From Gnetum montanum (Eukaryota; Plantae; Gnetophyta), in NCBI GenBank assembly GCA_015680685.1, contig MNCI01003401.1, forward strand, positions 165,843-229,842: 64,000 nucleotides of DNA, given 5' to 3'. Position numbers and translations under genes: made by a program. This document shows, piece by piece, positions 18,237 to 41,724 of the stretch; position 1 is the first letter of the stretch; each line of letters starts with the position of its first letter. Under the pieces are notes generated by a model, which saw only the letters and a program-made list of their open reading frames with translations, did no database searches and was not told the origin of the DNA.

Positions 18237-19048
18237 TGATGAGTGGTGAGGTACCCCTACACTCAACCATACAAATATGAACGTTTCACACATGATCCGG
18301 TTGAACTCTGCAGACAAACTAGTTCTGGTATCCAGACAGTTACTCATAGATCACAGTTCACTGTCTTCCCACTTGGACTAGTATTAGCTTTGTCACATAT
18401 GGTTTAGTCTAGAGTGAGGTGTATGATGTGGTTTGTAACCTAGTGCTACTCCTAGAGGCAATGGAAAATATATTTAATTAAGCTAAGAGGAAAAGGGAGA
18501 GAGAATCTAAGCTAGCCTAAGTGCAATGCACATCTGTTCCTTAATCATCCATACACATCTTGGACCTCATGCATGACTACCACTGGGATTACCAAGCGCA
18601 TGGCCTAAGTACGCTACTAGGTTACCAAGTAGTCACACTTAAATGCTCATGATCAAGTCGTACTCATTCCACATTTAATAGGAGTTTAGGGTAAAGAGAT
18701 GTTAACTATGAAAGTAATAAATAATAATAAAAATTAAATAATTAAACTAAATGAATGCTACAATGATGAAGTAATCTCGATCTTTATTTCCAGTCATGTG
18801 CATGTCCAAGTACGTCACACTCGAATAAGGATGTCATACAATTACAATCACCACACTGCGGGCATGCACCGGGAGGAAAGGATTGAGAGAAATCTAAACT
18901 TAAAAAACTTACAATAAAATATAACTTACTCCTTACTTTCCAAATCTGCCCACATCTTATTTATAAATGAGCAGATAGGTTGTGATATCGCGTCTAGGTT
19001 GTGATATTGCATCCGCGATATCGCAGCCCACAAATTTATGACTCATCA
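18237..19048 (-). repeat. N1 3' LTR
   Basis: Colinear with 26070-26878. PPT TTAGTCGTGGGGGTA (minus) at 19049-19063. TATAAATA (minus) at 18958-18965 follows three GCGATATCGC-type palindromes. Confidence 0.92.
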
Positions 19049-19239
19049 TACCCCCACGACTAAATGAAAACTCGTCCTTGAGTTAAAGTGAGAACAAGCT
19101 CCATTGATTACACAGTGGATAGGTATGGGATTATTAACTGACAAAAATGGGTTCATGTTGCAGTGTGGAATCAAAACAAAATTAGGACACAACACAGAGA
19201 ATGCAAAATAAAATCCTACAACTACAAAATTGATGGAAC

Positions 19240-22037
19240 TCATGTAGTTCCTGTTGGCGATGGCTCCTCCATAGGTGCCTTTCCCTTATCTTGTGCTCTA
19301 GGTCTTGGGACTTGATGGCATTGAAGTATGGCCTGGATTTTTTCCTCTTCAGTTCGAGGGTCCTGTGTCGTCCATGCCAATGTTTCGATGTTTGATGGAG
19401 TTAGCACCTTCCATGGGAAGGGTAGTTGCGGAAACATTTGATTTGCCTTGACATAGCAAGCCGCAAACACCTGTCGTTCCTCTTCGTAGGCTCTGGCTTT
19501 GTCTCTATATTCTTGAAAATCTGCAAGTCATCGAGCCAAGTCTATTGTGATACCCTTTTGCACCTAGTAGCTTGCTTTTACCACATCGAGTTCAGAATTT
19601 GCAATCTCCAATTTTTGTAACAATTTCTTGCATTCTGTAAATTTTGCTTCATATTTAACATAGGTGGTGGCTACCTGTTGCTCAAGCTCTGTTCTCGGGT
19701 GCCCTGCTATTAACATGGCAAGGTTGGCATACCGCAGGTTTGCCAACTCCATGTACTCCATAAGGTCTTGGATCTGCAGGTCCTAATTCTTAACTTCCGC
19801 CTGGTGGGCAAATGCGTATGCATCCAATATGGTCCACCAGTCAGCGTGTTGAGCACTGAGAGCATTGATGTGGGCCTTGGCCATATGGATCTCCTTCTCA
19901 ATGATCTTTTTGTACATCCCCACTTGGTGCCAGAAGTGCTCCTTTAGATTTTCATACCGTTTAGCCACATTCTGCCACGCACTTATTTCAATAGTCTTCT
20001 TCTTATGGATGGCACGTACCTCCTCCTTCGAGAGGGTTCAATTTTCCCTGGCTAAATAGTTCATGTCTTAGTTGACCTTGACGAGTTGTTCTCGCAATTA
20101 TTGAAAATGTTCTTCGAGAACATTCTTTTTGTTTTCCATAGAGATCAACCAAAGGTTATCAACAACAAGCTGTTTGTTTTCCTCTTATAAGGCCTTCATT
20201 GCCTTGGTATGCGTGTAAGTTTGTGCCTGTGCTGCAGAGGCATCCCAAAAAACTTTCTTATTTTCCTCTACCACCTTCTTATTCTCTGTCAATAACTTGG
20301 TTAGTTACTTAGTTTTGAAGGTGTCCAACTGGTCTATGAGGACAAATTGGGAAGGATCCCGCTGTGCTGCTTGTAGGGTCACGAGCCTTTCTTGTAGTCT
20401 TTTCACCTCTGCTTCTACATGCTTGGCCCTCATCTCTATCAAGACCAGCTTTCCCTTGGTGGAAATGAGATTTGATTGAATTGTCGTAACATCCTGAGGG
20501 ATGTCAAATAGGGATGTCATTACTTGTCTTGTTTGTAGTAATCGATCAAGTACATCCTCATGTTCCGCAAGAGTCATTGAGGTTTCGTCTAAAGTTTGAG
20601 CATCCCGTGCTCCTGTAAGGTCTACCGATGGCACAACAGGTACATTGAATGATTCCTTAATGTGGTCTACAACCACTTCTGTGGTTCCTACTGCATCCTA
20701 GTGTTGCATGACCACCACTGTGGCCCCTTCACCAATTTCTAATTACACTTGGCAGGATGTAGCATTCCCTGAGATCTATTGTGACCAAGTGCTTTCCCCT
20801 CCTCTTGTATGGATGGACACTTCATCCCTTGCACTATCCAAAGAAATTGTGGGTTGTATGGCATCTTTGATGATGTGGAAGAGATTTGCATCATCATGAC
20901 TTCCCCAACTGACCATCTCAACGATGACCTTGAGATGGCTCATCGATGATTTGTAATCTTACAGTGGCGGTGATTGATCCTGGCCCATGCTAGGCCCTAC
21001 TTCTTGTTGTTGGTTGGGTCTCATACATGGAATTTGGCTAGGTCATTCAAGTTGAGTTGCACTTGGCCCTGCCGTTTGTTCCTTTTCTTATTCCAACCCC
21101 AGCGTCTCACCAGTGATTTTCCTTGCAACTAGTGGCTTTAGCAGTTTAGCATATGAAGCATTTTGGGCTTTGCGGAGGACATCATTAGTATATCCTCTGA
21201 TACCAGCACGTTGGCACAGCTTCCTGATAAGACAAGGGAAGGGTAATGTAAGCTTTCCTGTCTTTCGTTCTTCAAACTGCCTCAGGATCTCCGTAAAATA
21301 TAGATAAGGTAGCTGAGGATTAACCTTTCCCATCAACACTGCACATCCTCTAGCTGCATATGTTGAAATTCTTTTTAAGCCCTTTCTGGGGAAGAGGTGA
21401 TAAGTTCCCATTTTAAAGTAGATCCTTTCTTCCATCGTCAACTCCCCAAATTTCTTATCTTCCTTGCCATATGCCCTTTCCAACCAAACTCGTCGCGCAT
21501 CAGGGTCTAAATGAGTAGACAATTGAGCAACCTTTGGCCATGTATTCGGCAGGTTTAATACTTCCAAAATGGCTTGAATAGAGAAATTGATTGTCACACC
21601 ACAAACGTTAACTGTTGTGCCTTGTTCCTTGTTATGCCAAAATTGGTACATTTCCCCTAAGTACCAGGCACTACTTTCAGAGAGGATAGGCTATAATGGG
21701 GACCCTTTGAGGTGATCTCTAACGACCTCTGAAGCAAATTCTGTGAAAGATTCAAAATTTAATTCCAAAATCACCGCAGTGAAGATGGACCTTTCATGGA
21801 TAGCCTGAACACAATCTTGAGGTAATGTAAGATGTTGTCCCTGTTCAGGCACTGCAGAAACTCCTCCTTCCGCCTGCCTCAATTGTATAGTAGCAGGGTC
21901 CTCTTGGTGAATGCTAAATGATTATTCCTCCTACTCTGCTTTGCATGCTGTCCGGCAGGAACTTGTCCTTTGCCTCTCCTAGGTCGTTTGCTCCCACCTT
22001 GAGCAGAACCTTCCTGTTATCCACGTTTCGGGGCCAT
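19240..22037 (-). pseudogene. N1 accessory ORF (Athila env-like position): MAPKR start, plant-transposon-protein-like domain, long coiled coil; decayed
   Basis: TGATTGTAG|ATG GCC CCG AAA CGT at 22037. VNVCGVTINFSIQAILEVLNLP..LPFPCLIRKLCQRAGI resembles the Transposase_32/PF20167-type domain (recalled, not searched). LRYANLAMLIAG block is shared with the N2 accessory ORF. Confidence 0.8.
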
Positions 22038-22519
22038 CTACAATCACACAGAGCCAATCGTTAGTAAGGTTGTTACCAAAGTTAGGTTATACCTTACTGC
22101 TTACCTTAATGAATTTGCTTTATCTCCATGTGGCGTTAATTAAAATTTCCCTAAAAGATTATAATATTAGATCCTCTTGCTTAGGTCATTTCCAAATCTA
22201 GTTTCCCAGTATCACTAAGGGGATAAAATTATTTTTGACACATTTATCTTTAATTTCATAGCTAATTACCCTTGACAATGTCCTTCGGTTGATGAAACAT
22301 TTCAAAAACGTTATGCACTATTCAGCATGTGCCCCTCCCCAAGACTAAGCTGAACACTCTGGGTTCAAGTGGGTTTAAATGAAATGAAAATCAGAGAACC
22401 AGCGAGCGAGTTATGGATATGAAAGCAAGGGATGCGTAATCGCAAGTCGTAGAGAGAAATTTGAAAAACTCCCCCACGTGAATAGTTGAAAATGATGTTA
22501 AGTAGTGCCAGGGGGTCAC

Positions 22520-22597
22520 ATATATATATATATATTTTTGACATGATATCATGGACGCGATATCGCGTCAGCCGCGATATTGCGTACGCGATATCAT
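22520..22597 (-). promoter_or_regulatory. Putative internal promoter of N1 accessory ORF: 4 GCGATATCGC-type palindromes followed by a TATA/(TA)n tract
   Basis: Palindromes at 22543, 22557, 22574 and 22588; (TA)n at 22520-22535; same motif and similar spacing as the N1 LTR promoter. Confidence 0.65.
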
Positions 22598-23972
22598 GGC
22601 CTATCAATGTTAGGGCATAATAAAGGATACCACATTTTTAAGATTGTCTTGAAATTGTGATGGAAGTTAAGGACATATGGACAAGTGTTAAAGGGTTCCA
22701 AGGTAATTTAACTAGTTCTTGAAGGCACAAATAATGATGATGGTGTGGAATGTATCAATAAGGACCTTGGGTGGTAAGGGAGAGAAAAAGGATATGTAAT
22801 GGTTCATAGGAACGTTTGAATTAGAGGGGTAGTAATAAGGGAAAGAACATTGTTGAAGATATGTTGAGGGCAATAAATAGTGTGTGGAAGATGTTTTATG
22901 AGTGCAAATTACAAAAATTACGCAAGTGGGTCCTCCCCAAAGAAGGTTCTAACCTATAATGCCCTTGTGTAACCCCACTTAGAAGTTTCCATGGGCACTA
23001 GAAGGGTTTAATATAATCCACACCAGGTCCACAAAACACACACACACACATGTGTAAGTATCATCAGAATGAGGTCGAAATTCTATGCTACCCAAGACAC
23101 GAGTTACAATTATATGAACAGAGAGGTGAGACGGGGTATAGAAGGGATTGTAGGAATTGGGACATGAGGTAATTGACCCAGGGCACAATGAATCCTACGT
23201 GTAAAGCATGATTAATGTGTCATTAACTTGTCATTCCAAGATCAGGACCAAGTCCATTCCTCTAATCAATGACACCACATTGTTTCATCCCATGATGAGC
23301 GACTATGAGAGCATCATAACAACAAGGCATACAATCACTTGGCATTTTGTTCAAGGGAGGAGTGATTTTTGCTTTGTGGCACTTCCTTTTTTTTTTGTTT
23401 TGTGTGTGTGTGTGTTTTTTTTTTTTGAATGCTGAATCCAGAGAAGCTGCCAACCTTTAGGCATGGGTGCATGTCTTTCCAGTGAGACCCCCTAGAACGG
23501 CATTGGATTTTTGAGTGCCTTTTGATTACTCTTATTCACATTTGCATTAGATCTACAAGGATCTTAGTAAAACCACATTGCATGATAATTCTCACAAACG
23601 TCACCAAAGAGAATCTACAAGTTCCCTTGATGTCACACCCTAATCATTCCCTCTTGGTCCATCCTTCTTCATTTTGGGTACAATGAACACAAAATTAATT
23701 TTAAGTTTTAAGAATGTCAAGAATATCATTGTACCCTCGAAAAGAACCTCTTATTTGTAGAATGGATGAATGGGTGTAATGGGCTCACTATCCAAATAAT
23801 TGATCACTCAAGACTTAATAACATAAAACACACCTCAACCAAAGAGCCACTTACTTATAGAAAAATAAAAAGACAAAAAGATAAAACAAGAAATTGAAAA
23901 AATTAAAAACTGGGAAAATAAAACAATGTAAAATTTAAAAAAATGAAAAATATTTATTAATCCTACTTGTTA

Positions 23973-25996
23973 TTAGAATGGGGAATATCCCCCATAACTA
24001 AGCAATTGAGCATGGCAAGGATTAATAATTGAGAGATGAGGATCCTTGCATGTTGGAAATATTGAAACTTGGTCATACTTCCCCCATTGGGGTTCACACA
24101 CCTGATTGTAGTAAGCGTAGTGGGGCACTTTACAAGATGTGGTTCGCGGATAAATATTTGACCCACTATGGTACTTGTGACCATAAGATGGTACGCAAGG
24201 ATCAGAATGTTGCTCTCCATGGATGTATTCATTGGGCCGTAATGAAGTGACACGAGGCGTTGGGTTCGAGGAGAAGGGTACACCACAGTGTTGGACTTGT
24301 GCTAAGTTGGAGGATGCAGTGGCCTTGGAACTGTGTTGTCTCTTCCTACGATCATGTCTAAATAAGGGGCACCTTTGATGTTGAGGAGGTCTCTCACTGT
24401 TGTTGGAAATAGTAGCACAAGTAATGTTCGTGTGTTGTTGCGGTGGTGCAGACACTTTAGGAACAGTTGGCGGCAATGTAGAAGAAGGGAAAGGATGAGA
24501 ATGCTGAAATTTAGGAGAAGTGTGAGGTACACAAGGTGGTGGTTGTGTTGAGGACATGGGTTGATAGTACTGAGGAGAATAATAATGTGGTGAGGTAGAG
24601 TATGTTGACCCAGTTGGGGAAACAGGATGTTGAACTAGATAAGCGTTTAGATCCGGATGATATGAAGGGTGTCTCCAGTTTAGGGATGGCTTCCCCCATG
24701 ATTGGGATTGTTGCCACTATGATTGAACACAATATCTCTTTATGAACTCTGGGTGTAACATGCTTCCCCAATGCTCATATAAATGTAACAAGATTGGGCA
24801 TTGGCCCTTGGGGTGATTGTACAGGCAAATGTTGCATTCATACATATGATTGGCAATTGGGCTCTTATTTTCTTCATCCCTTCTTTCCGATTGTCTAATG
24901 ATGTTTTGTCCTACTTCTCGGGTTGTCAAAAATCTATCTCCAATAATATTGATATATTCCTCACACTTTTTATGCATCCATTCCAGTATCTTATTGATCT
25001 TTGCCTCAATTTCATCTAATGGTTGTTGTACTGGCAAAGATGGTTCTTCCTCCTTGAGATAGGTTGATTTCTCCTTTTTATGATTATGGACCTTTGTTAA
25101 GTTGAGATTTTGGTCCCGTTAATGTTTTTCAACACTCTCCCATCTAGCCATTTATCCTTCTTCTTTTGCTACCTGCTTAATAAGCTCTCGAAATTGATCG
25201 GTTCATAGTTCATATAGTTGCCCTTGGGCATACATCCCTAGGTTCTCTCTTGTTTCATCACGAAGCCCATCAATGATATGATACATTAGCCTTTCCTCGG
25301 AGAACTCATGGCCTAGATAGTTGTTTAATAGTGCATAATATCTTTCTAATGCCATGTCCAAGGGTTCATGTTATTCTTGTTTCCACTCTTGGATTTGTTT
25401 CCTTAAGGCTGACACTCTTGCGTAGGTTTGATATCTTTCGTTAAAGAGTTCTACCATTGTTGGCCAATTTCGTATCGAATTTGGTTTCAACAATCTATAC
25501 CATACTTTTGCTTGGCCAACAAGTATCATAGGAAAGAGCTTGAATTTTTACCAACCGTTATCAATGTTGTTCCATGCACAGGCATCGTAGAAGGCTTGTA
25601 AATGTTGTTGTGGATCTAAGTCATAGCCTCCTAAGAAATTGAGAAAGTTGTTTAAATCAAGCCTGGGTAGATGGCTCTCTTTACAATGCCTATGGGAGAT
25701 TCGAACAACCTCTTGTATTTGCGGCAGGCTTGTAGTGGCCAGTAGGGGTTCATCATCATCAAGTAAGTTATGCTTTCACGCATTATGATGATGTTGCTTT
25801 CGTTTATGCTTATAAGAATCCCCCAACTTAGATTGCGTACTCCAACCTTCATTGTCATATAATTCATTGGTTCTCCAATGAATTGCCTCACTAGATGTGG
25901 CATTATTGTAGTCTTGTAGGAGAGGCATGGTTGTGAACTTGTGTGTGAATTTTTATGTGAATTTTTGTAATTATTTCTTCCTAAAAGATATATCAT
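23973..25996 (-). pseudogene. N1 gag, decayed
   Basis: DPQQHLQAFYDAC..KVWYRLLKPNSIRNWPTMVELFNERY..QIQEWKQE..EPLDMALERY and the ECNICLYNHPKGQCP motif are homologous to N2 gag (ECGICQYEHPKGCYP). Start position approximate. Confidence 0.8.
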
Positions 25997-26050
25997 TAAT
26001 TCCTATACAGCGACCTTATATGATATAACTAATCTAGATAACTAGCACCG

Positions 26051-26069
26051 TCCTCGGCAATGACGCCAA
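26051..26069 (-). promoter_or_regulatory. N1 primer binding site, tRNA-Asp type
   Basis: Reverse complement TTGGCGTCATTGCCGAGGA resembles the Athila PBS TGGCGCCGTTGCCGGGGA. Confidence 0.8.
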
Positions 26070-26878
26070 TGATGAGTGGCGATGTACCCCTACACTCAGC
26101 CATATGAATACGAGTGTTTCATGCACAATCCGGTCAAACTCTGCAAATGGACTAGTTGTGGTATCCAAACAATTACTCATAGATCACAGTTTGTTGTCTT
26201 CCCACCTGGACTAGTATTAGCTTTGTCACGTATGGTTTAGTCTAGAGTGAGGTGTATGATGTGGTTTCTAACCTAGTGCTACTCCTAGAGGCAATGGAAA
26301 ATATCTTTGATTACGCTAAGAGGAAAAGGGAGAGAGAATCTAAGCTAGCCTAAGTGCGATGAGCATCCATTCCTTAATCATCCGTACACATCTTGGACCT
26401 TGTGCATGACTACCACTGGGATTACCAAGCGCATGACCTAAGTACACTACTGGGTTACCAAGTAGTCACACTTAAATGCTCGTGATTAAGTCATACTCAT
26501 TCTGTGTTTAATAGGAGTTTAGGGTAAAGAGATGTTAACTATGAAAGCAATAAATAAAAATAAAAATTAAATAATTAAACTAAGTGAATGCTGCAATGAT
26601 GAAGTGATCTCGATCTTTATTTTTGGTCATGTGCATGTCCAAGTATGTCACACTCGAATAAGGATGCTGTACAATTACAATCACCACACTGCGGGCATGC
26701 ACTGGGAGGAAAGGGTTGAGAGAAATCTAAACCTAAAAAACTTACAATAAAATCTAAGAACTCACTCCTTACTTTCCAAATCTGCCCACATCTTATTTAT
26801 AGATGAGCAAACAGGCTGCGATATCGCGCCCGTGATATTGCGGTGCGATATCGCAACCCACAAATTTATGACTCATCA
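26070..26878 (-). repeat. N1 5' LTR
   Basis: Pair of 18237-19048; palindromes at 26818, 26832 and 26845; TATAAATA (minus) at 26794-26801. Confidence 0.92.
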
Positions 26879-26883
26879 CTCTT

Positions 26884-27862
26884 AATATCAAAATGCTCTA
26901 AATTCACTCTAATAAGTGGTGAACTATTTAGAAATAATTTCTAAGGGATATACCTTAAGTGTTTGAACCAAGAGCAAGCTAACGATGCTTTAAAACAACT
27001 TCACAATGAAGGACATATAGGATATCGCTCATTAGTTCATAAAATTGTGAGGGTTGTTTATTATTGGCCTACTATGATTAATGATGCTTATAACCTAGTT
27101 AAGACGTATGTCCAATGCCAGATATTTAAAGGTAAATATTCGAAGAGTTCGGCCCCTTTACAACCTATAATAGAAACAAGACCATTTGCCCAATGGGCCT
27201 TAGATTTTATTGGAGTGATCAATCCTTTATCTACTACCCTACATAAGTTCATTTTGACAGCCACTGATTATTGCACACATTGGTTAGAGGTGAAAGCAAC
27301 CAAAACCGCATCATCTCGTGAGGTCATTTGCTTCTTAGAAAATAATATAATCTCCAGATATGGCTATCCTTATGCTTTAGTAGTCAATAATGGGCCAGCC
27401 TTCATTTCCATAGAGTTTACAACTTGGGCTAGATATCATAACATCATTGTCAAGGTGGTAACTGAATATTACCCACAAGGTAATGGTTTGGCTAAATCTT
27501 CCAACAAAATTATATTAGATGGGATTAAGAAAATGGTAGCCCAAAATCCATGAACCTGGCATGAACAACTAAAATGGGTAGTTTGGGTTGATAGGATTCA
27601 TTACAAAGAATCAATAAAGACTACACCATATGATTTAGTGTATGGATAGGAACCCATATTGCCAATTAATTTATAGATTCCTACATATCAATTCTTCTTA
27701 TACTACTTAGCAACTAATGAGCATCTAATATCACGAGCATGTGATATTTTGAACGTAGAGCTTAAAAGGGTTAAAGCGATCGAAAATATGTATGGTCATC
27801 AACAAATTGTCAAGAGATGGTTCGATAAAAAATATGCATCTAAAATTTTTCAAGTAGGTGAC
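26884..27862 (+). pseudogene. Tat pol, part 2: integrase zinc-binding region and core
   Basis: LHNEGHIG..YYWPTMINDA..CQ; PFAQWALDFIG..TATDYCTHWLE; YYPQGNGLAK. Confidence 0.9.
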
Positions 27863-28732
27863 TGATGAAATTTCATTAGTGGATGCGTTGACTAGGCCAT
27901 GTATACGCAGCCTTCCATGTGTGGACGTGGCCCCGTTTACGCGGAGACTATTTTGGCCTATAAATAAGAGAGCCTTTCACCTCATTTAGGTACCTTTTAG
28001 TTAGTTGTAGCAACGCTCTTGTAGTTTGTTCCCACAGGAGATAGAATATTTTCCAAGTGCCCGCAGCAGGTGTAAGAAAATTTCTTGACTCTTTATTTGA
28101 GCGATGATGTATCTGAGCCCATTGGTGTGAAGGTAATAAAGGCGAACTCTTAAGCATTCCTTGCAGCATTTGGACTTAGCCATTTTATGCATTCAGTAGT
28201 TTAATATGTTTATGCTTTGTTAATTGCTTGTTAACTACTTAAATTTCTATTATTGTTATTTTAATCGCTATCACTCCTTTATAGTTCATCAAGGCCATAA
28301 GTACGACCATCTCGAACGTAAACCCAACACTTGGTGAACCCAGTGACGCTTAACGTCCGGTAACCCAGAAGTGCTTAGGGGATGCTCAGAACGTGCTTGG
28401 AAGATGGGATCAGATACTTATGCTAGGAATAGTTAGAATACAAATTAGGATAATTATAGATTAGAAAATAGTTCATCCTTTACTTTCCACACTTTAATTA
28501 GACGCCAAAAGATAAGTAAAAGCTATAAAAATCATTAGTCTTAATCTCACTTAACCATAACAAACAAAACATCACAAGTGAGATTAAGAAGGCAATGACC
28601 ATTCTAACCCAAGGTTTCGCTGGTTAGAGTTTGGTATATGTTAAGTGCTTACAGTCTACGAAATTCGACCAAGTTGCGTGTGAACACCCGTGATTCGTAT
28701 GGTTGGGCGTAGGGGTACCTCGCCGCCCATCA
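27863..28732 (+). repeat. N2 5' LTR
   Basis: Colinear with 40626-41524; TATAAATA at 27959-27966 preceded by GTATACGCAGCC-type motifs. Confidence 0.92.
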
Positions 28733-28877
28733 TTGGCGCCATTGCTGGGGAATTTTAGTCTTACATGTGTCATCTAACCTTAGTGAAATTATCATACAAA
28801 TCGTTGGAACGGACCCAGGATAGAAATATTTATGCATGCTAGGCGAATTAAAGTAAATAGTAAGGTACACCGATTAC

Positions 28878-31800
28878 ATGGACCATCTAACATTCAATAT
28901 GTCTTCTCACAAAAGAGAGGTATCCAACCCACCTGTGCCACAAGAATGTCGGGTGGTGTACAGGCATCTCGATGATTATGTCCCTGACTTCACTTTCGTC
29001 CTACATTAGAATGAGCATCTATGATGGCGGGACATGGAGGGCAACATCGTGCTACCACCTGACCGATCGACTCTTGTAATGCTATTCCACAATCTTGGTA
29101 GACTACGCATCCAAGACCGTGGAGTGGAGTATGTCATGGAGGACCATAACTATCAGGACTATCATCCCACTGAGGCTCAATGAGCACAAGACCAGTAACA
29201 AGTGGACAGATATGAACACCTGAAGGGAAAACAATTCAGTAATCCCTTATTCTCGCAAGGGCTACAAGACTATGGGGATCCCATCTTTCATGATACCCAT
29301 TCAACCGAACTCCCCCTGGGGCAGCAGGTCCTTTAGTCCATCATTCAAAACAAGCCTCTAAGTGACCAAGATCCTCAAGGGGATGGAGGATCACGTAGAA
29401 AATATGGGCAAGATGATCAAGGCCGTCATCAAGGCAGAGGGGGAGATCGACACCAGAGCAGTGGCGATACCTCTCCTTCTTCTCCATCCTCTCGCTCTCC
29501 TACACCTTCATCTAGCTCAAGCTCGGATTGTAACCAGGGTAAAAAGAAGCGAAAGGATGGTGGTAAAAAGGTTTGGAAGGGACAACGTAAGGAAACATGC
29601 GACCAATCGTATGATGCTCACTGTCATGAAAGAAGGGGTAGCCGAAATTGTCGCAGACATCATGGTCCTCAGCAGGACTATGACTCGAATGAGTCGTTGT
29701 TGGCTACTCGGAGCATGCTCCATATCGTGGAGGTGATTCAGATCCCCAGTAGGCATGTGAAGGATAGCCGGATCAAGCGTGTAGATATGAACAACATCCC
29801 CAGATTTGAAGGGGAATACAATTATGATCCATAGACTCGCCTACAGGTGTTCCATGACGTCTACACCCTGCAGAACATTATAATGATTGGCAGAGGCTGA
29901 AGCTATTTCCTCACACACTCATCAAGAAAGTAGAAAACTGGTACCTGTCCTTGGAGCCAGAATCAATTAGAAGATGGAGTACAATGCTTGAAATTTTTAA
30001 TGACAAGTATCAAATGTACTCCAGAGTGGTGAACTTGAGACATCAGATCCAAGGGTGGAAACAAGGCAATCATGAACCCTTGGATGTAGCCATGAGTAGA
30101 TACTATTCACTACCACATCGGTGCCCTGGTCATGGCTACTCTTAGTGGGCATAGCTTTGCCACATCATTGATTGGCTCCGTTTTGAAACGCAAAAGACCC
30201 TTGGCGTGTACGCCCAAGGACGATTATCGGAGCTAAGGGCCCATCAATTATAGCGCCTCATTAAATAGGTGGCCAAGGAGGAAGGAGAATTGAGAAAAAA
30301 ATAAAGTGTAGAAGAATTCAGCTGGGATCCTTCCCTCAGAAAAAGGGAAGTCCGATTTTGTGATGAGGAGGAGGAATCACCACTGGAAGCAGCGGTGAAC
30401 CGAAAGACCTTGCCTTTACAAAAGTTTGCATCTGAAATATCGGAAAAGGTTGATAAGATGTGGGACTCTTTGGATGACAAATTCCAAAGTGTGCTAAAAA
30501 TTGTAGAAGCATCCAGAGAACAAGATAATGACCGTGATCGATGCAAGAAGAAGGAAGCTGAACGTGCCCAATATAAGGGTAAGGGAAAAGTTGTTGTAGC
30601 TGAGCAGGTTGCAGACTTTGACACTGAGGAGGACGATGAATGTGGCATATGCCAATATGAACATCCTAAGGGATGTTATCCTATGATGTCATACCTTCAA
30701 TATTTTGGGGTGTACGCATTGAATCCTCGCTTGGCGAAGAGGCAAACTCCCCGAAGGTTGCCTTACCCACAAGGCAACCCAAGGTAGTTCCACCAATAGC
30801 AAGGATACTATCCAAGTGGAGCGCCACTGCAACCGTATGAACCCTCACATACACCTATGGCTAGTGCCTCTGAACCCTCAAGCTCCTCCGCTATTGCACT
30901 GCCTAAGCAGCCTTCAAGCCAACCACACTCCAACGTCCAAATAGTCATGCTCATACATGTCGTGATCGACTAGATCAAGGCAGGTCATCTTCCTTGGAAA
31001 TTGACTGATCTGGGAAGCCTCCTCATCTATCTTCAGGTGGTAAGGAACGAGCTATGTAGAGCTCTTTTGGACTCGGGGTCATGGGTCAATTTGATCTCTC
31101 ATGATATGTACAAGAACTGGAACTTGCCCCCGCTAAAAAAGAGAAACATCCAGCTTGAGTTAGCAGACTAGTCCATCACCATTCCCTTGGGATTGGTGGA
31201 GGACATTGTGACCATTGTTTGTGGGTGGTCCTATCCTGCTGATTTCCTGGTCATCCGTGTGGAGAACTGTAAGGGAAACTTCCCAATCATCATGGGAAAA
31301 GCCTGGCTAAGCATGGTGGATGCATGACTAAGACTCCAAGATCTATCCCTTGAAATTTTAAAGGAAAATCCTTTTGGGAAGATCAAGAAGAAGCATGTTC
31401 CATGCATCATGTACAGTGACTTAGGGTGCAACAGTGTGCAGCAGTTATGGTCTGCTAAGCGGATATCCATTCAAGCATGCAGTCGGTGTACCGAGGAATC
31501 ACCTATTCAACAGTGCCTATATGTAGTAGCCACTAACCAAGAGGGCACCTAGTGGTTGACAGCTGATCCTACTAGTAGCGCATTATGCATGGAACCATCT
31601 GAGGGGCTTGTACAAGCCTACATTGAAAGCATGGACAAAATGGAAGAGGTTCATCAATAGGTCTTCACTGTTGATGACCATGATGACTGGGGGAAGCTAC
31701 AAATCCCCGAGAGCTTCAAAAAAGAGCCCCTAGAGCTAAAATCTTTACCAACTCACTTGGAATATGCATTTTTGCAAAATGGAAAGCCAGTAATTATCAA

Positions 31801-34800
31801 TGCCACCCTTGCTCCTGAAAAAAAGAAGAGACTACTGAAGGTGGTAAACAAATGGGATGCCACATTTTCATGGTCATATCCTGAGTTAACTAGAGTTGAT
31901 CTCAGGGTCTGCCAGCATCAAATCTATCTTGACCCTTCCATGAAGCCACGATGACAGCCACAAAGATATTTGGACCCCAAACTAAAGCAGGTCATCAAAT
32001 ATGAAATCAAACAATTGCTAAAGGTGGGGTTCATCTATTCTATTGTCAATAGTGAATGGGTTAGCCCACTCATTATCATGCTGAAGAAAGGTGGAAGATG
32101 GAGGGTGTATTGATTTTCGATTGCTCAACCTAGCTACCTTCAAGGATTACTTTCCACTCCCATTTGTGGACCAGGTGTTGGACACCATCGCAGGGCATCA
32201 CTATTCCAGCTTTTTGGATGGTTATAGTGGTTATAACCAAATTCAAATAGCACCCAAGGACCAAGCCAAAACAACTTTCACAAGTCCATGGGGGACTTTC
32301 GCATACAAAAAGATGCCTTTTGGCCTGTGTAATGCACCTACTACATTCCAACGCCTTGTCCTCAACATCTTCTAGCAACAGATTGGCAATGGGGTAGAAG
32401 TCTTCATGGATGACTTCTCTACCTATGGACCATCTTGAGTAGGATCTGAAAAGGTATGTAGACACCAATTTGCGGCTCAATTGGCAGAAAAGCCATTTGA
32501 TGGTCCAAGAAGGCATTGTACTAGGGCATCGCATCTCACAAATAGGGATTAGTATGGACCCTGAAAAGATCAGGGTCATCCAAGGAATCACCCGCCAACC
32601 AAGCACCATAAAAGATATTTGGTCATTCCTTGGCCACACTGGTTACTACCGGTGCTTCATTGAAAACTTCTCGAAGATCACCAAGCTGTTGGTAGAACTT
32701 ACAAAGAAGGATGCTTCGTTCATCTAGACCAAGGAATGTGAATCTGCATTCCAATTACTTAAACAAAAACTCATAGAAACTCTAGTTATATGAGCACCTG
32801 ATTGGTCCAGGCCCTTTCACATCATAACAGATGCATCTAATTATGCCTTGGGAGCCGTGCTTACATAGTGTGATGATCAGAATTGTCCATACTATATCCA
32901 CTATGCAAGCCGTAGCATTGTGGGTGCTCAGCTTAACTACACTACCACTGGAAGGAGTTGATGGCAGTGGTGTTCACCTTAGATAAATTCTGACACTCTG
33001 TGCTCAGATACATGGTGTTTGTGCATACTGACCATAGTGTTATTCGGTTCCTGATGAACAAACCAACAGTGAGCCCCTGCATCATATGGTGGCTGGTGAT
33101 TCTTCAAGAGTTTGATCTCACCATGGTAGACTGGAAGGAGACCGAGAATGTGGTAGCTGACCACTTGTCTCAGTTACGATGGGATGACACAAAAGAGGAG
33201 GAGCCCCTCTTCGATCAATTTCTAGATGAACTCCTCTTCGCAGCTGCAGTTGATCCACAAGTATCCAAGGAATCCCCTTGGTTCAACCGCATCCTCACCT
33301 ACCTCACAACCCAGGAGTTGCCAAAGGAGTGGAACCATCAGCAGAAACAGCAGTTTCTCCATAAGGCCAAGCATTTCATGAAAATCAATGGCCACCTTTA
33401 TAAGGTGTGCACAGATGGCCTAGTTCGATGGTGTCCCTGATGACGATACACTGTGCGTCCTCCAAGATGATCACAAGGGCCCTTGTGGGGGCCACTATAC
33501 TAGATGCCACACAACCATTAAGATCCTGCTTGCAGGATATTACTGGCCCCCAATTTTCAGGGATGCACAATGGTTCGCCCGCTCCTATGAACAATGTCAA
33601 AAAGATGGTGGGATGTTGGCATGGTTGGAGGAACCTCAATAGTGGATCCAACCACTGAAGCCCTTCGACATCTGGGGCATCGACTTCATGGGGCCCATCA
33701 CACCCTTGTTGATGAGTGGTGAGGTACCCCTACACTCAACCATACGAAACGAGTGTAGCACGCGCGATCCAGTCGAACTCTGCAGACTAAATGCCTAAAC
33801 ACCCCATGGAACACTTGGGGTTAGTCATTCGTTATCTTCCCAGACTTACTTGTTGTTGTCACGGTGTATGGTTAAGTAAGTCTGAGGTATATGATTTTTA
33901 TAGTCTTTTCTGGTNTCTCGAAGTGGTTGTACTGAGGCACCTAACTAGGAGGAAAGGGTTGAGAGAGCCTAACTAGCCTAAGTGCGATGAGCAGCCGATT
34001 CCTTGACTAGCCGTACACATCTGGGACTACCACTGGGATTACCAAGCGTAGATCTTGGAATATGCCACTGGGTTACCAAACAGTCATGATGCTCGTAATC
34101 AAGTCGTACTCATACCGCATGCAACGAGCAGCCAATTCCTTGACTAGCTGTACACATCCTTAGATGCTCGTAATCAAGTCGTACTCGTATCGCATTCTAG
34201 GAAAGCAATAAATAACAATAAATAAAATCCTATCCATGCACTACAAGGTTTATCCAATCAAGTTCATCTTTATTGCTGTACACAACTTGTGTTCAGGTAC
34301 AATGTTGCTTGAATAAAGATCCATTCACTCTAGGACTCCTACTGCGGGCACATGGGAAATTAATTTATCTCTGGAGTGATCAAACTGCCAGAGCTTCGCT
34401 ACTTCTAGCCAGGATTGGGAAATAAGGGGAGTGTTGCCTCTTATTTATATATTTGACGACGAACCACGATATCGTGTACGCGATATCGCAGGGGACGACG
34501 TGATATCGCGTACGCAATATCGCATGGGATGTGATATCGTGATGGCTGCGATATCACGTACGCGATATCGCGGCCCATGCGATATCGCGTCTCATCACTT
34601 GTCAAATGGAAAGGCATACATCATCGTAGCTATGGACTACTGTACAAAGTGGGCATAAGTAGCCATCGTCGACTGTTCTTCCAACACCACCACATGATTT
34701 GTCTAGCAACAAATCGTTAACAAGTTTGGAGTGCCACGTGCACTCATTTATGATAATGGGACTCATTTCACAGGTGTTACTTTTTAGAAACTCATGCAAC

Positions 34801-35390
34801 ACTTGGGGGTCACCCATAAATTTACAACACCCTATCACCCCCAAGCCAACGGGTAGGGAGATCACCAAGATCCTTACCCGAACCATCAGCAAATATAGGA
34901 GGGATTGGAGTACAAAGCTTAACGATGCCCTATGGATCTATCGCTCCACTTGGTAACTTCCTGTAGGGTACTCTCCCAATGAGTTAGTGTACAAAAAGTT
35001 ACCAATACCTCCAATTCAGGCCAAACTCCACACACTATCCACCGCTAGTGACTTGGGCCTTGACCTCCTGCTAGCACAATGTGAACGACTTATCAATTTA
35101 AGTGTGCTAGATAAGAACCAATTAGTGGCCCTGTCTTCCAATGAGATCCACAAGGCCTACAACAAAAAATGACATGATCTTAGGATTTGGAAGGTCACAT
35201 TTAGATGTGGAGACAAGGTGTTGTATTGGAACCCCTCACATGTATCTCAACCGACCAATTTTCAGACACTGTGGATGGGACCTTACATTGTCTCTGAAAC
35301 CTTTCCATCTAGGGCCTTGCTTATCCACAAACCTAAGGACCCCACCAAAACATAGTTAGTCAACCGCCAACAACTGAAACCTTTTCGTGA
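28878..35390 (+). pseudogene. N2 gag-pol (Gag, PR, RT, RH, INT), many stops; integrase split by solo LTR N3
   Basis: PR LLDSGS (~31066); RT CIDFRLLN..KDYFPLPFVDQVL..FLDGYSGYNQI..MPFGLCNAPTTFQR..VFMDDF; RH VHTDHS..ENVVADHLS; INT WGIDFMGP|..AMDYCTKW..TPYHPQANG; GPY motif at ~35275. Start approximate. Confidence 0.9.
33710..34597 (-). mobile_element. Athila-like solo LTR N3 (related to the N1 LTR)
   Basis: TGATGAGTGGTGAGGTACCCCTACACTCAACC..TCTCATCA; TSD CTTGT at 33705-33709 and 34598-34602; eight GCGATATCGC-type palindromes at 34467-34590. Confidence 0.93.
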
Positions 35391-37060
35391 ACTTCACTCA
35401 ACTAGTGCAACTGCCTCGTCATCACCAGGATAGCCTCGCTCCATATTCCACGTCTCCTCCTTTCCACCCAATCATGGGGGAGACCATTTTCCATGCTGAT
35501 CCATTCCCCTTCGTCCCTCACTTTTTGTATTTTTTTTTTACACTTTTTTTTTCACCATCATTACTACGTTTTCTATTCTTGCTACAATTTTCCTTTCTTT
35601 AATTATTTTCATTATTTTTCCATTTCTTTGTTTGTTGTTTCATTTCCACTTTTGTTGCTGCTAAAAAATCATCTTGTTGTTGTCAGGTTTGCGTGGATGG
35701 TTTTTGTTGCGATGGGTCATGGGGAATGGCCTACCTTTTACCCCAGTCTTGCCCTCACATGGTTGTTCTTGGTTTTTGTGGTTACTTTCACCTCATAATA
35801 TCAGCAATGGGTCCACGTCATTCACCCATTCATCCACTCCGTGGTTTTCCTACCATCGGGATTATGCAACCCCAGTTCATTTTAAAGAAAATATTTTAAT
35901 TAATGTATGAATTGTGTAGTTCCTGGACTCGGGGATGACCCAATGGTTTGCATAGGGTGTGACTTCAAGGGGAATGCAACATTCATAGTCCTCTTCTACC
36001 CTTGGGTGGCACGAGTGCCCTTACAGATTTCTTACCACTCCAAATTCTTTGCTACAAGGAAGCTCCTTGGTAGTTTAACCTTGCATGGTGTGGTCCTCAT
36101 CAAAAATCGAAAAAAGAAAGAAAAAAAATGAAAAAAAATCCATGAGGATTCAAAGCACACCCCTTGGTCAGATGCATGCACACAAGCATGGGTCTTCACA
36201 TGGTGTGGTTCCCACAAATTGAAAACCAAAATAAAACACAAGGATAACATCCTCACCATGTTGGAATTCAAAGCACACCCCTTAGACCACCTCTCACGGG
36301 CCGCCAACACTAGTTATGGGACTTCTTTTGTCCCCTCTAACTTGGTCACATTTCGCTTCCTCCCTCTCGCGTCTATTGGAGTGGTGGCTCTCTGTGGGTG
36401 CATTCCTACCCACTTGCGGGCTAGATGAGTCTTCGTGTGTTGTTGCGATGTCACTGGAGGTGGTTGGTTTTAGGTCTAAACTTGGAAAAGGTTCTATCAG
36501 GTCACTTAACCATAGCTTCATGTGGGGGTTTCATGGAACCGATCATTGGACATCCACACCTCATCTCTCTCTCTCTCATCCACTTCTCTCCCTCCCTCAT
36601 CCCATTGCCAATTTTATGACTTGATTGTTTGTCACATCTCTCATGACCTTCTCATGCTTGGGCAGGGTCTCCTGGATGGAAGTCTTAACTTACGTTCGCC
36701 ATTCCTTCACACTAAGGCCCATGGACCCTAGTGTTGGGGATATGCAAGGGCTACAAAGGCTATCGCCTACTATGGGGAGGACCTACTTGCATATTCTTGG
36801 TGTTGTTCATTAGTCTCTCATCCTTGGGGTTGGTTGGTGGCTTGTTTTCACGCCATTTGTCGCTCGATTTCTTCCCCACGAAGTTCTTTTGAGTCACGTT
36901 CTCCTCCTTTTGACTCTTTTTCGAGCCCCAAATTTCCTCCTCCTATCCTTCGTCATGTCTAGGCCTCTCTCGTGCTTCAACCACCCCAATTTGGCATTTC
37001 AAATTCATCATTTCGGGCTTTTTTTGGGTTGGTCAACACTGGTCAATGGGTGCACACCCT

Positions 37061-37151
37061 GTGTATATGGGGCCCCATATATGCAGCCCCTTGTGTATAT
37101 GCAGCCGCATATATGTAGCCCCATCGACGCAGCGCCTTATCCCTATATATA
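37061..37151 (+). promoter_or_regulatory. Putative internal promoter of N2 accessory ORF: 5 GCGT(AT/CG)ACGCAGCC-type motifs followed by TATATATA
   Basis: Motifs at 37061, 37076, 37093, 37107 and 37122; TATA at 37144-37151; same motif class as N2 LTR 40658-40735. Confidence 0.65.
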
Positions 37152-37524
37152 CACCTGTTGCGCTTTGAAATTTTCATAATTTGGAATCCAAATTGAGGGG
37201 AGATTTTGCTATTTTTTCTGCCTAACCCTTCCCAACGCACCTACCTTCCATCACGTGTCCGCATCAACCTATCCTTGCCCTTTTAAGCAACCGAAGGTAT
37301 GCTCTCAGTCGTGGGGGGGGGGGGGTGATGCCCATGTGTAATTAATTAATTAATTAATTAGTTACTAATTACGAAAATTTTGGCTCTAACCCATAAATTA
37401 ACACTCCGGGAGACTTAAAGGAATGCATGTGCCAACAACATAACTTAGTCAACCTGAGAAGGTGTATAAGGACCATCTTGAGCTACTTATGCACACTCTA
37501 ATGGGTGGTTATGTTTGATTGTAG

Positions 37525-40452
37525 ATGGCACCCAAACTAAGGCATCCAAGGGGCAAAGGACCATCACAACCGAGGGACAAGCGCCCACGCACGGGAAGGG
37601 GACGAGGCACGCAACCACTAGAGCACATGGAGGGCTCTCATGCAACTAGCCCTCTCCGCGAAGGACCTGACATGGAATTTGTCCATCAGATTCCCAAATA
37701 GGAGATTCCCAACGAGTAATCACAAGGGGATGAGACTTCTGGGATAGCACCATGGCTTGAGGTCACCCTGACCCAAGCCTATCTTGATGCTATCACACCG
37801 CACGAGATGCAGCAAATGGTCCTTCAAGAGCTAAACTTTGGACCATTCCTTGAGAACGCACTAGAAGAAGTAAGGCTCCAACTGCAAAACTTTCCAATGT
37901 TGCCAATCATCACAACTAGTGGTGAATGGTACTTAGGAGAGACCTATCTCTTCTGGACAAATCGGCAACCAGGGTCTAGAGTAAGAATCAAAGACATTTA
38001 TGTCTCTTACTCTTTGTAGACGATAGCGCAAGCTTTGGGGTTGCTCGAGACCAAGGCGGATGTGGTGAAAATTCCAAAGCAGGCTAACCCCGAGGTAAAG
38101 GCGAAATGGACCAAACGATGATATGGGATAGAGTGCAAGGAATTTGACTCTCTGACCATAGCAGAGAGGATATATTCAAAGATCGTGTCTTACCACTTGA
38201 ATCCAACGGTAAGACCTAGCAAAATCACAGCCTTCTCCGCTCGTGCATGTGCCGCCTTGAGTAGGAAATTCCCAATGAGTCTTCCACAGCTGCTATTTTT
38301 GAAGATTGAAAAGAGGTTCACTAAGAATGAACATGGAAAATGAGCTCTCCCCTTTCCTTGCCTAATCTGAAAGTTGTGAAAATGGGCAGGGATAGCACGG
38401 TACTCCAATGATGTAATCTGGCATGCCCCGATTACCTCTTGGCAGGAAATGATGAAGGATAAAACTCCTGCCACCACACAAACAGATGAGAAGTAGCAAC
38501 CACCTCCACCACCTACACAAATAACATAGCTAGGTTCGCAAGCCATAGCAGAACACATCCACGAAATCCGGGAAACGCTCTTGAGCCAGCAAGAGCAATC
38601 TGGTAGGACTGGTGGAGGAGAAGACCCTTTGGTCTATTGCCCTATAATGAGCCACTCGGAGCAAGTGGCTTGATCAGTTAGCATGCTTAAAAGGGCAAGG
38701 CCGATGTTCTCATCCTCCCGAACTCCAATGGCTGCATGAACAAATCCTAGTGTCCGAGAGGTAACAGTGTCCACACAACAGTTATTTCCTGAAATTTCTG
38801 GGAATGCTGCTACCTTCTCGGTATGCTTGGAGGATGATCAAGGGGAAACAATCCTGGCGATGCAGCACCAAGGACAGGAGACTGTGGCCAAATTGGTTAC
38901 TGACACAATTGCTACAACCCTTAATGCACTGGCAGCACCTATACCGTACATTCATGGACTACAAGATGTACAGGCATCTGCCGGAACTTCGCGTAGCAAG
39001 ATTGATGCAGCCCAACATGAGTTGTTGGACTGATTCGTGGGAACCGGGTAACCACTCTCGGATGTCTTCGACCTTTCGAACAACATTATTGCAACCCAAT
39101 CGGAGCTACTCTCGTCAAGGGGTAAGAGCCTCATTTTGGAAGGGCAACTTGAAGCTACTCAAGTCGCTTGTCAACGCTTGGCAATGGAAGTAGCCTAATT
39201 AAGAGCCCAGCTTAATAATCCAGCTATCCTCGATCATGTAATCACCAAAGATGAAGCTTTTCAATAGCTTCAACTCAAAATTCAGATCGTTGAGGATGTG
39301 CGAGAGACGACGATCTTCGATAAGTCCTTAGGGAGATGTTCGAGCATATCATTTAGACAAGGACTTGGTGGAGGTTCGTCAGGAGAATGTCTGACTGACC
39401 ATGGAGGTTCATCACCTACGCAATGTTGGTGCAGAAAATGAACACATGAAACTTTTATCCACCAATAGCAGGAAGAACTAGCCAGGGTGAATGTTGACGT
39501 AAGAAGGTTGGCCGCTAAGAATCGAAATCTATCAATGGAGGAGGTTCGGGCGTTGCGACAGAAGCCTGCAATTGAAATTACCACTTGGAAGAACGAGGCC
39601 CTGAAATTTGAAAAAGTTAAAAATCATTACAGGGACCAAGTGGGATTGCAGAAGGAGGTGAATGAAAAACATATTCAAGTCACCAAGGCTAAGATAAACC
39701 AAGTGCTCCAGCAGCTCTGAGAGGGAGGCAAGGTATGGCAACCTATCTTTGATGGGTTGAATGACTACAATCAAGCTAAAATCCGCCTTAAGGAGCTGCA
39801 AATTGAGGAGATGACAGAATATATGGAGCCTGCCACCCTTCGCTATGCAAACCTGGCTATGCTCATAGCCGGAAGACCACGGTCAAAATTGGAAAAACAA
39901 GTGGTTGCCTCGTATTCCCTATACGAGGGAGAGTTCCAGGCGCATAAAGCAACAAAGCAAAAGCTGGAAACGGCAAACGTGAAACTCGAGGTTCTCCATA
40001 CAAGCTTTGAAGGACAACGTATAGGCACGGAGAACCTAGCCCATAGGATGAATAACTACCAGCAACTGCAAACATCAATTCGAGCATTTGACATCGAATG
40101 AAAGTAGTTCGCAGCCTAGTTTGTCAACCTCAAAGAACTCTTCTCAACACTGCCATGCCCTTGGGAAGTTCCAGTTCCAGCACACATTGGAGAAGCTGCC
40201 TGGACTATGAACCATCCCAAAACCAAAGAAGAAAAGATGAGGGCTCTCTTGGAGGCTTTTCGACTACCTCCAGAAGTTGCAGCTGCTGCAGGGCAACCAT
40301 CATCCGTGCCGGCACCAACGCATGGGCCAGAGGTTGGAGAAGGTCCATCAGAACCACTGCCCCAGGGATGGTGTGACCTTCTTCAACAATTTTGTGCATC
40401 ATTCTACACGGCAGAGACTCCAGGACTAGAGAGGTGTTCAATTTTGCTTTGA
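37525..40452 (+). pseudogene. N2 accessory ORF, homologue of the N1 accessory ORF; decayed
   Basis: TGATTGTAG|ATG GCA CCC AAA at 37525. LPFPCLI*KL*KWAGI (~38345); EYMEPATLRYANLAMLIAGRPRSKLEKQV; LPCPWEVP..PKTKEEKM. A candidate 5'-UTR intron runs 37297(GTATGC)-37524. Confidence 0.8.
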
Positions 40453-40625
40453 ACACCACCATTTTTGTAATTTGTCCTTCTCTATAACTCAGGCACTTGG
40501 TCAAATTAATGTTGTGTCATGTGTGTGTCATATGTGTGTCAAGTCATGTGCGTTGCAAATAAAAATCCATACCTTCCAAATTGTAGAGTAACTAGAGGAC
40601 AAGTTTTTACTTAGCCGTGGGGGTA

Positions 40626-41524: not shown

Positions 41525-41529
41525 GTGAC

Positions 41530-41724
41530 CTAGTCCTTAAGAGAGATAGAGCATCTGGTCAAACTGGCCCTCAAACTAATTTTTCCCCCATGTGGTTAGG
41601 TCCATTCCAAATTGTAGACATCATTGCCCCAAATGTGTTCAAGATTGTTGATTTGCAAGGACATCGGTTGAATAAGAATTTTAATGCATTTTATTTGAAG
41701 CATTTCTACTCAGATGCCCCACAT
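41530..41724 (+). pseudogene. Tat pol, part 3: integrase GPY/F module
   Basis: (FQVGD)LVLKR..FSPMWLGPFQIVDII..FNAFYLKHFY; the frame continues from 27862 once N2 is removed; runs into an N gap. Confidence 0.88.

Follow-up and report, generated by a model that had tools for sequence, protein, structure and literature searches.

The closest described arrangement is found in the Sireviruses (SIRE, Ty1/copia), whose CG-rich palindromic units keep their arms constant and vary in the centre from family to family. According to the available text of two reports (PMC2829016, PMC4728375), these units cluster ahead of the LTR TATA and again ahead of a 3' ENV-like ORF, for which an internal promoter was proposed. 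The units are often paired, and unit-sized indels distinguish the LTRs. All of these features recur at the locus described here.

Three other systems are relevant. VANDAL transposons encode an accessory protein, VANC, and carry family-specific short motifs in non-coding arrays, likewise a point of agreement (PMC5735166, PMC13547354, as far as their available text goes); VANC is a transposon protein that binds the motif arrays of its own family (PMC5735166). In foamy viruses, the nuclear accessory product Tas/Bel1, encoded behind an internal promoter, is described as binding both the internal and the LTR promoters (PMC517496), and the same circuit is proposed below. Extra ORFs of Athila (PF20167; PMC11728184) and of Grande and Retand (PMC7264820, PMC11963269) are conserved between pol and the 3' LTR, as they are here. 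These proteins are predicted or shown to be nuclear with a proposed regulatory role, and an NLS is predicted in the PF20167 protein of a sunflower Athila (PMC11728184). A matching promoter motif code is not described for any of these ORFs in the available text of the three papers. The two-site palindrome architecture is already published for Ty1/copia Sireviruses. For Athila, the literature searched, outside subscription papers, yielded no report of palindrome codes at two sites or of self-transactivation.

The window, a stretch of 64,000 nucleotides from Gnetum montanum that was analysed as a whole, contains nested and decayed Athila-type Ty3/gypsy elements: N1 (without pol), N2, and N3 (a solo LTR).

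18237..26878, minus strand: N1, non-autonomous Athila-type element with gag and a 3' accessory ORF, pol absent; TSD CTCTT
26051..26068, minus strand: N1 PBS, with 2 mismatches to the ATHILA PBS start TGGCGCCGTTGCC as given in the available ATHILAfinder text
27863..41524, plus strand: N2, Athila-type element in a decayed state, with gag-(PR)-RT-RH-INT and a 3' accessory ORF; TSD GTGAC; PBS from 28734
33710..34597, minus strand: N3, solo LTR sitting inside the N2 integrase; TSD CTTGT

The order of domains in N2 (gag, RVT_1, RT_RNaseH, Integrase_H2C2, rve) is that of Athila gag-PR-RT-RH-INT, with the protease recognised as an LLDSGS motif in translation only and without a Pfam match. An additional RNase H is reported to mark Tat and to separate it from Athila (PMC6317226, available text); neither RVT_3 nor RNase_H was found in the N2 frames. 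The outer element, unlike N2, has matches to both. The PBS start TGGCGCCGTTGCC (tRNA-Asp/Asn) is retained at 11 of 13 letters in N1 and in N2, both differences being transitions. N1 has a Retrotrans_gag domain match (E 1.8e-12) and an LTR pair with 90.6% identity (K2P 0.103). Both N1 and N2 have a 3' sense extra ORF of the Athila type that is PF20167-like, with no match to PF03078.

Palindrome arrays are located in the LTRs of all three elements and at an internal site of N1 and N2. The N1 and N2 3' LTR arrays lie outside the span covered by the sequence-only reading that preceded this analysis.

26818..26854, minus strand: N1 5' LTR array, 3 ATAT units; TATAAATAAG from 26801, 16 nt past the last unit
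22543..22597, minus strand: N1 internal array, 4 ATAT units with gaps of 14, 17 and 14; TATA run from 22534, 8 nt past the last unit
18982..19024, minus strand: N1 3' LTR array, 3 ATAT units; TATA box 18965
34466..34588, minus strand: N3 array, 8 ATAT units; TATA box 34451, 14 nt past the last unit
27885..27942, plus strand: N2 5' LTR array, 4 T..A-type units; TATA box 27959
37061..37130, plus strand: N2 internal array, CpG-decayed, with a TATA core in 4 units and a TCGA core in 1; TATATATA at 37144
40648..40733, plus strand: N2 3' LTR array, 6 T..A-type units; TATA box 40750

The earlier assignment of GCGATATCGC to N1 and N3 was confirmed. Seven exact copies are present in the window, as opposed to 0.0033 expected from dinucleotide content, and these account for 7 of the 11 GCG-N4-CGC matches. 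When CpG decay is allowed for, all 14 ATAT matches fall inside the four N1 and N3 arrays. For N2, GCGTATACGC and GCGTCGACGC had been proposed; exact copies of either number zero across the window, and what stands is a set of CpG-decayed copies, backed indirectly by the N2 LTR pair and by related contigs. A strict decay-aware scan returned two TATA-core matches (37093 and 40662), both in N2, and two TCGA-core matches, neither within N2. The two N2 LTRs preserve complementary halves of a TATA unit (27899 and 40662). DNA contigs from all four runs examined, which carry four organism labels, were aligned to 37045-37160 with an 80% filter that would drop ATAT-type arrays, and the 27 variant rows comprise 26 C/T or G/A transitions and one G>C. 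At the decayed arm positions, 11-58% of the contig depth carries the CpG letters. Zero variant rows fall in the TATA cores of units 37075, 37093 and 37107, and unit 37061 has none at all. These related copies support the CpG frame of the N2 internal array. The outer frame, described earlier as constant, is so only in part: units 37075, 37121 and 27933 have C in place of the outer G, and the variant rows for 37075 and 37121 list no G.

The half-site is GCGA in N1 and N3 and (G/C)CGT in N2, at the LTR and the internal site alike. Among chosen units, from lists picked by eye, A..T was found in 15/15 from N1/N3 and T..A in 11/11 from N2, at both sites; an unbiased in-array scan adds off-register look-alikes (2 T..A in N1/N3, 1 A..T in N2). 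The proposal of a matching difference between the families at two sites kilobases apart is supported, with the switch defined by one family contrast, N1 vs N2. The 4-bp core did not survive as the code: the switch is better captured by a single base of the half-site (GCGA vs GCGT), and the variable part consists of this base and a 2-bp centre. Gaps between units are 14 bp in 13 of 21 cases and in both families, counts that are non-independent because arrays grow via duplication.

The palindrome clusters are likely to be the binding sites of two promoters. The favoured reading, with a probability of roughly 40%, is that the accessory protein encoded by the element itself reads both promoters through putative binding. 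In its favor, Sirevirus internal motifs are reported only where the ENV ORF is present (PMC2829016, available text). Against it, the ATHILA ORF is reported, again in a source seen as partial text, in just ~1/4 of Brassicaceae ATHILA (673/2,322). Host transcription factors, a rather unlikely alternative, would read the arrays as promoter elements, with the families having drifted or been selected onto different factors and the internal promoter tracking the LTR since the two need to be active in the same cells. The TATA-proximal position of the arrays is consistent with such reading. Host factors are also the published Sirevirus interpretation, in which stress-related PLACE matches are cited and minor variation alters host binding (PMC2829016, PMC4728375, available text), and LTR motifs persist in Sireviruses that have no ENV ORF (PMC2829016). 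However, different factors with a common CG-N4-CG frame and a common 14-bp pitch would be needed, the available Sirevirus text gave no single host site (PMC2829016), and the CpG-rich sites here have decayed heavily, with a fraction of ~0.42 of the CpGs lost per LTR.

The flanks of the two sites had been described as not visibly homologous. LTR bodies are homologous among N1, N2 and N3 (z 8-26), and the regions upstream of the internal arrays are homologous between N1 and N2 (z 14.5). In every internal-vs-LTR test, the internal distal flanks gave z <= 2.2 for LTR likeness, which upholds the description for distal flanks and led to the rejection of a recent whole-LTR copy as the origin of the internal arrays. 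The description fails for the inter-unit linkers. With units masked and with a shuffle that inflates z for GC-rich linkers, the N2 internal array matched the N2 LTRs at z 7.1 and 7.7, and the N1 internal array matched the N3 LTR at z 5.7 and its own LTRs at z 1.4. GTAC linkers and a GTCAAA ahead of the TATA are common to the N1 internal array and the N3 LTR. Recent copying from LTRs is therefore half borne out, in the shared linkers and not in distal homology.

Since linkers are common to both sites, template switching or conversion may have carried a cassette of array and TATA between the LTR and the internal site, so that the two evolve in concert with no specific reader. The array would then work merely as a CpG-rich TATA promoter whose symmetry is kept by templated repair. 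In agreement, the N2 5' LTR array is shorter than that of the 3' LTR by a net 28 nt, or two pitches, and unit-sized indels are often reported in Sirevirus arrays in the text available. This origin is nevertheless improbable: besides the missing distal homology, the order and usage of centres differ between the two kinds of N2 array, being mostly CG in the LTR (in the 3' LTR with one AT and one TT) and mostly AT internally, a pattern easier to reconcile with a shared binder than with recent copying. Cassette copying also leaves unexplained why hypermutable CpG arrays are found at both sites in families whose proteins are 33-38% identical.

A TATA-like box follows the last unit by 13-16 nt in six of the seven arrays and by 8 nt in the N1 internal array. 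This short, fixed distance points to use at the DNA level and bears on a further, quite improbable alternative in which the palindromes act as RNA or single-strand DNA, either as hairpins for small-RNA targeting or as self-complementary, family-specific dimerisation signals. In four of five arrays, folding is better than in any of 200 shuffles (z -3.7 to -6.7), and the available Sirevirus text describes such arrays as hairpin-forming siRNA hotspots; however, repeated palindromes fold as an automatic consequence, the N2 3' LTR array is weak (z -1.9, with 11/200 shuffles equally good), and the inferred start is downstream of the 5' LTR array.

The internal arrays are located 380-500 nt ahead of the 3' accessory ORF in each element.

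19255..22037, minus strand: N1 accessory ORF, disrupted by stops and an early frame change; PF20167-like domain
37525..40413, plus strand: N2 accessory ORF, homologous to the N1 ORF and disrupted by stops and by one stretch out of frame

The two translations are 33% identical over 886 columns; their N-domains are 38% identical, as is Gag. N1 has retained this ORF although pol was lost. PF20167 was the only Pfam match of the accessory domain; that of N1, taken alone, scored 46.4 bits (cut-off 45), and that of N2 scored 31.5 bits, below the cut-off. Both proteins have a basic N-terminus. The N1 ORF has an acceptor-like TGTAG ahead of its ATG, a MAPK start, a basic KRPR stretch and a heptad-rich C-terminal half. 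No transmembrane helix was found in the read-throughs, the maximal 19-residue hydropathy being 1.53 and 1.03 against a threshold of 1.6 (a simple scale applied to decayed read-throughs), and an envelope role was rejected on this basis. From its predicted features, the accessory protein looks nuclear rather than envelope-like.

AlphaFold2 models of the accessory protein from 2 and 4 sequences had pLDDT values of 36.4 and 40.1, too poor for fold comparison. Foldseek with these low-confidence models gave no match at E <= 0.001. VIA-align gave a best Z of 5.8, on helices of the poor models, and VANC/MAIN was absent among the matches listed, which is uninformative at this quality. PDB sequence searches returned chance matches only. 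A search for homologous proteins recovered no full-length, one near-length and one shorter fragment sequence, all without genomic context, and no related loci were found by protein in metagenome and viral contigs. A PPT/LTR-junction pattern gave 4 metagenome and 0 viral loci, which were dropped as chance because they showed neither a BLAST match to the window nor any of the motifs. RNA reads on N2 numbered 630 and 839 in two runs, of which 571 and 744 were under 90% alike; no start cluster was seen at the N2 internal TATA, at a depth too low to reveal a start.

Self-reading by the accessory protein would proceed as follows. The internal TATA would be a real promoter, yielding a separate and possibly spliced mRNA for a nuclear protein that oligomerises through its heptad-rich half. 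A dimer may read one palindrome and a higher oligomer pairs spaced 14 bp apart, and binding would activate or de-silence the protein's own promoter and then the LTR. If the preference of the protein altered, both arrays would have to change with it, and the new unit would spread through them by slippage and template switching. The generalisation to Athila 'env-like' PF20167 proteins as putative sequence-specific DNA-binding activators or anti-silencers, acting on paired palindromes at the internal promoter and the LTR with a one-base half-site change as a private subfamily code, is tentative and on balance doubtful.

With this model in mind, the elements offer a concrete candidate target for the ATHILA ORF, whose function is unassigned in the available text of bioRxiv 10.64898/2026.03.20.713144, and bear on the long-open question of what plant 'env-like' ORFs do (PMC7264820, available text). 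Two natural motif variants are each paired with one of two homologous proteins. If the model is true, LTR retrotransposons would possess a means of self-activation comparable to VANC or Tas, and this could partly account for their spread in large, heavily methylated genomes; if Sirevirus motifs act alike, the circuit would have arisen in both LTR superfamilies or passed between them. If it is false, the Sirevirus two-site palindrome architecture is still extended to a Ty3/gypsy lineage.

In terms of known systems, and as far as the available text of the cited sources allows, oligomerisation via coiled coils is predicted for VANC as well as for the Athila domain. VANDAL differs in being a DNA transposon with motifs such as YAGTATTAY that lack CpG dyads, and VANC binding and demethylation were shown experimentally, whereas binding by the Athila protein is putative. 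Tas belongs to a vertebrate retrovirus and is likewise experimentally proven, in contrast to a circuit that is predicted from sequence. The Grande and Retand ORFs are antisense with their own promoter, and Retand carries TRP28 (PF04195), whereas the accessory ORF here is sense. The Sireviruses are Ty1/copia, whereas the N2 integrase follows RT/RH as in Ty3/gypsy Athila. The arms here are (G/C)CG..CGC as opposed to CGG..CCG, CCGG-core and GG..CC forms being absent from the unit lists, and the TATA lies 8-16 nt away as opposed to an average of 37 bp. A clear TATA-like box past the internal array is a feature of the present elements, unlike Sireviruses. The arrangement works like the Sirevirus system, yet it is not that system.

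The clusters of CpG-rich GCG-N4-CGC-type palindromes (arrays, each palindrome being one unit) in N1, N2 and N3 are a real feature that the sequence-only reading partly misdescribed. These three are decayed, nested LTR retrotransposons, N3 being a solo LTR, in a window of plant repeat DNA (31-47% GC, CpG depleted) organized as follows.

18237-26878, minus strand: N1, TSD CTCTT, nested in the outer Ty3/gypsy element
27863-41524, plus strand: N2, TSD GTGAC, nested in the outer Ty3/gypsy element
33710-34597: N3, solo LTR, TSD CTTGT, in the N2 integrase
13500-18236, 26879-27862 and 41525-41724: parts of the outer Ty3/gypsy element, which N1 and N2 interrupt; domains gag, extra RNase H, RT, RH and integrase
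near 11000-13010 and 42800-45170: probable LTRs of the outer element, 2-kb direct repeats
1190-1609, minus strand: Peptidase_M20 gene fragment (E 3.6e-13)
7886-8329, plus strand: zf-C3H1 gene fragment (E 1.4e-6)
56188-56496, plus strand: retroviral-type aspartyl protease fragment (E 4.5e-5)
62861-63364, minus strand: kinase gene fragment, weak match (E 2.6e-4)

Both the N1 and N2 LTR pairs gave a K2P of 0.103, with ~0.42 of CpGs lost per LTR. Pfam-type profile matches in N2 comprise gag-RT-RH-INT with no extra RNase H, and those in N1 comprise gag only. Each PBS agrees with the published ATHILA PBS in 11 of 13 letters; from domain content and PBS, both elements are filed as putatively Athila-type. 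The N2 family is highly abundant, with 78,742 contigs from one DNA run and 69,230 from another placed on 4.1 kb. In the outer element, RVT_3 and RNase_H matches precede RVT_1, so that the extra RNase H lies between the protease region and RT. One study describes this arrangement as a mark of TatI (club-mosses) and TatII (gymnosperms) (PMC6317226), and the domain order is of the Tat I/II type, which makes a gymnosperm the probable host. The probable LTRs of the outer element contain no CG-N4-CG dyad cluster. Related repeat copies with the same terminal sequence as these LTRs are present at 447-1195, 46166-46866 and 60704-61189.

The ATAT-core units proposed for N1 and N3 were confirmed: GCGATATCGC occurs seven times in the window against 0.0033 expected, always within these elements, and 14 of 14 matches from a CpG-decay-tolerant scan fall inside four arrays. 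The TATA and TCGA motifs proposed for N2 have no occurrence in the window in their literal form. They are recovered as units inferred from CpG-decayed copies, the two N2 LTRs keeping opposite halves of one TATA-core unit. When contigs of all four runs were aligned to the N2 internal array (that preceding the 3' accessory ORF), 26 of 27 variant rows were transitions, and CpG letters stood at arm positions in 11-58% of depth, which does not equate to copy number; one unit had no variant rows, and the 80% filter on contigs hides arrays of the other motif type. Three TATA cores were free of variant rows, and the TCGA unit varied solely by decay of its own CpGs. Four of five arrays form better folds than any of 200 shuffled sequences, as would be expected of RNA-level hairpins; however, good folding is a consequence of the palindromes themselves, and a role as hairpins is judged unlikely.

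The specificity switch had been assigned to the central 4 bp. The families do differ, but in unit lists picked by eye the difference is one symmetric half-site base: A..T beside the CpG arms around an invariant TA centre in 15/15 N1/N3 units, against T..A in 11/11 N2 units. The N2 centre may be AT, CG or TT (mostly CG in the LTR array, mostly AT in the internal array), and thus several centres are tolerated. An unbiased scan within the arrays added three off-type look-alikes. The outer frame is not constant as had been supposed, with C replacing the outer G in some N2 units. Taking one LTR per element, 13 of 21 unit gaps, which are non-independent events, measure 14 bp, a spacing seen in both families and at the LTR and internal sites alike; the remainder are 13, 17 (four), 18 and 20 (two). 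A net 28-nt difference within the array separates the two N2 LTRs, so unit number is labile.

A TATA-like box follows the array end by 13-16 nt in six of seven arrays and by 8 nt in the N1 internal array. The ATG of the accessory ORF, an extra gene between the gag/pol part and the 3' LTR, follows the internal box by about 500 nt (N1) or 380 nt (N2), and an acceptor-like TGTAG sits just before this ATG in both elements. Among short DNA matches between the two internal regions, the best (22025-22064 vs 37498-37537, 40 nt, 80%) is a branch-point/acceptor-like stretch directly upstream of the ATG, hinting at a spliced mRNA. Separately, hundreds of RNA reads match the N2 PPT/LTR-start junction (40588-40632) and then diverge into other U3 sequences; the RNA seems to include related families, some of which may carry additional motif types.

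With X at stops, the accessory ORFs are 33% identical over 886 columns. Both open with MAPK and a basic stretch and carry a PF20167-like domain and heptad-like stretches, and neither read-through contains a hydrophobic helix. In the PF20167-like domain, N1 and N2 share 38% identity, equal to Gag (38%), which would imply long purifying selection. The arrays, their spacing and position, the concordant switch and a conserved non-membrane protein are the observed basis for our preferred reading, to which we give a probability of roughly 0.4: the arrays belong to a pair of promoters recognised by the accessory protein that the element itself encodes, a candidate DNA binder proposed from one family contrast. 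The internal and LTR TATA sites would be active promoters, and the accessory protein would be nuclear, form oligomers and bind the arrays, leading to activation or anti-silencing. The link between arrays and accessory ORF is a testable candidate. More tentatively, PF20167 accessory proteins could in general be DNA-binding activators or anti-silencers with a family-private half-site code. That host factors read the same arrays is a possible, if doubtful, explanation.

The flanks had been described as non-homologous. This stands for the distal flanks of the internal arrays, which show no LTR likeness (all shuffle-type z <= 2.2), but not for the linkers, which align with the units masked. The N2 internal array aligns with the N2 LTR arrays (z 7.1 and 7.7) and the N1 5' LTR (z 4.4), and the N1 internal array with the N3 LTR (z 5.7) as opposed to its own LTRs (z 1.4). 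Unlike N1's own LTRs, 22543-22597 (N1 internal) and 34466-34588 (N3 LTR) have in common GTAC linkers and GTCAAA before TATA; N3 may belong to a sister or partner family that shares this motif type. The linker alignment speaks against a switch that was parallel throughout: either recognition extends to linker bases, or one site received short cassettes copied from the other. Cassette copying with no specific reader is judged improbable as the whole explanation. Between N1 and N2, the internal regions show homology farther upstream of the arrays (z 14.5), none in the proximal 300 nt (z -0.4) and weak likeness downstream (z 1.9-2.4); the LTR bodies of N1, N2 and N3 are homologous (z 8-26). From these homologies, the two sites were likely already present in the common ancestor, and the same difference is now seen at each.

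Several known systems bear on the preferred reading. VANC shows that an element can encode a reader for the motif arrays of its own family (PMC5735166), and foamy virus Tas is a precedent for a two-promoter circuit (PMC517496); coiled-coil oligomers are predicted for both VANC and the Athila domain in a 2026 atlas (PMC13547354). A literature search covering the main texts of open-access papers turned up no report of a two-site palindrome architecture in Athila. In Sireviruses, palindromic motifs whose arms stay constant while their centres vary form clusters ahead of the LTR TATA box and the ENV-like ORF, the internal copies being present only where that ORF is present (PMC2829016). The Sirevirus motifs are paired, produce unit-sized indels and were termed Sirevirus-specific among the Ty1/copia elements studied (PMC4728375). 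While the arrays of the window show a comparable two-site palindrome architecture, their elements have Ty3/gypsy order and different arms and therefore do not belong to the Sireviruses. The two-site arrays described here are a variation on an architecture already published for Sireviruses.
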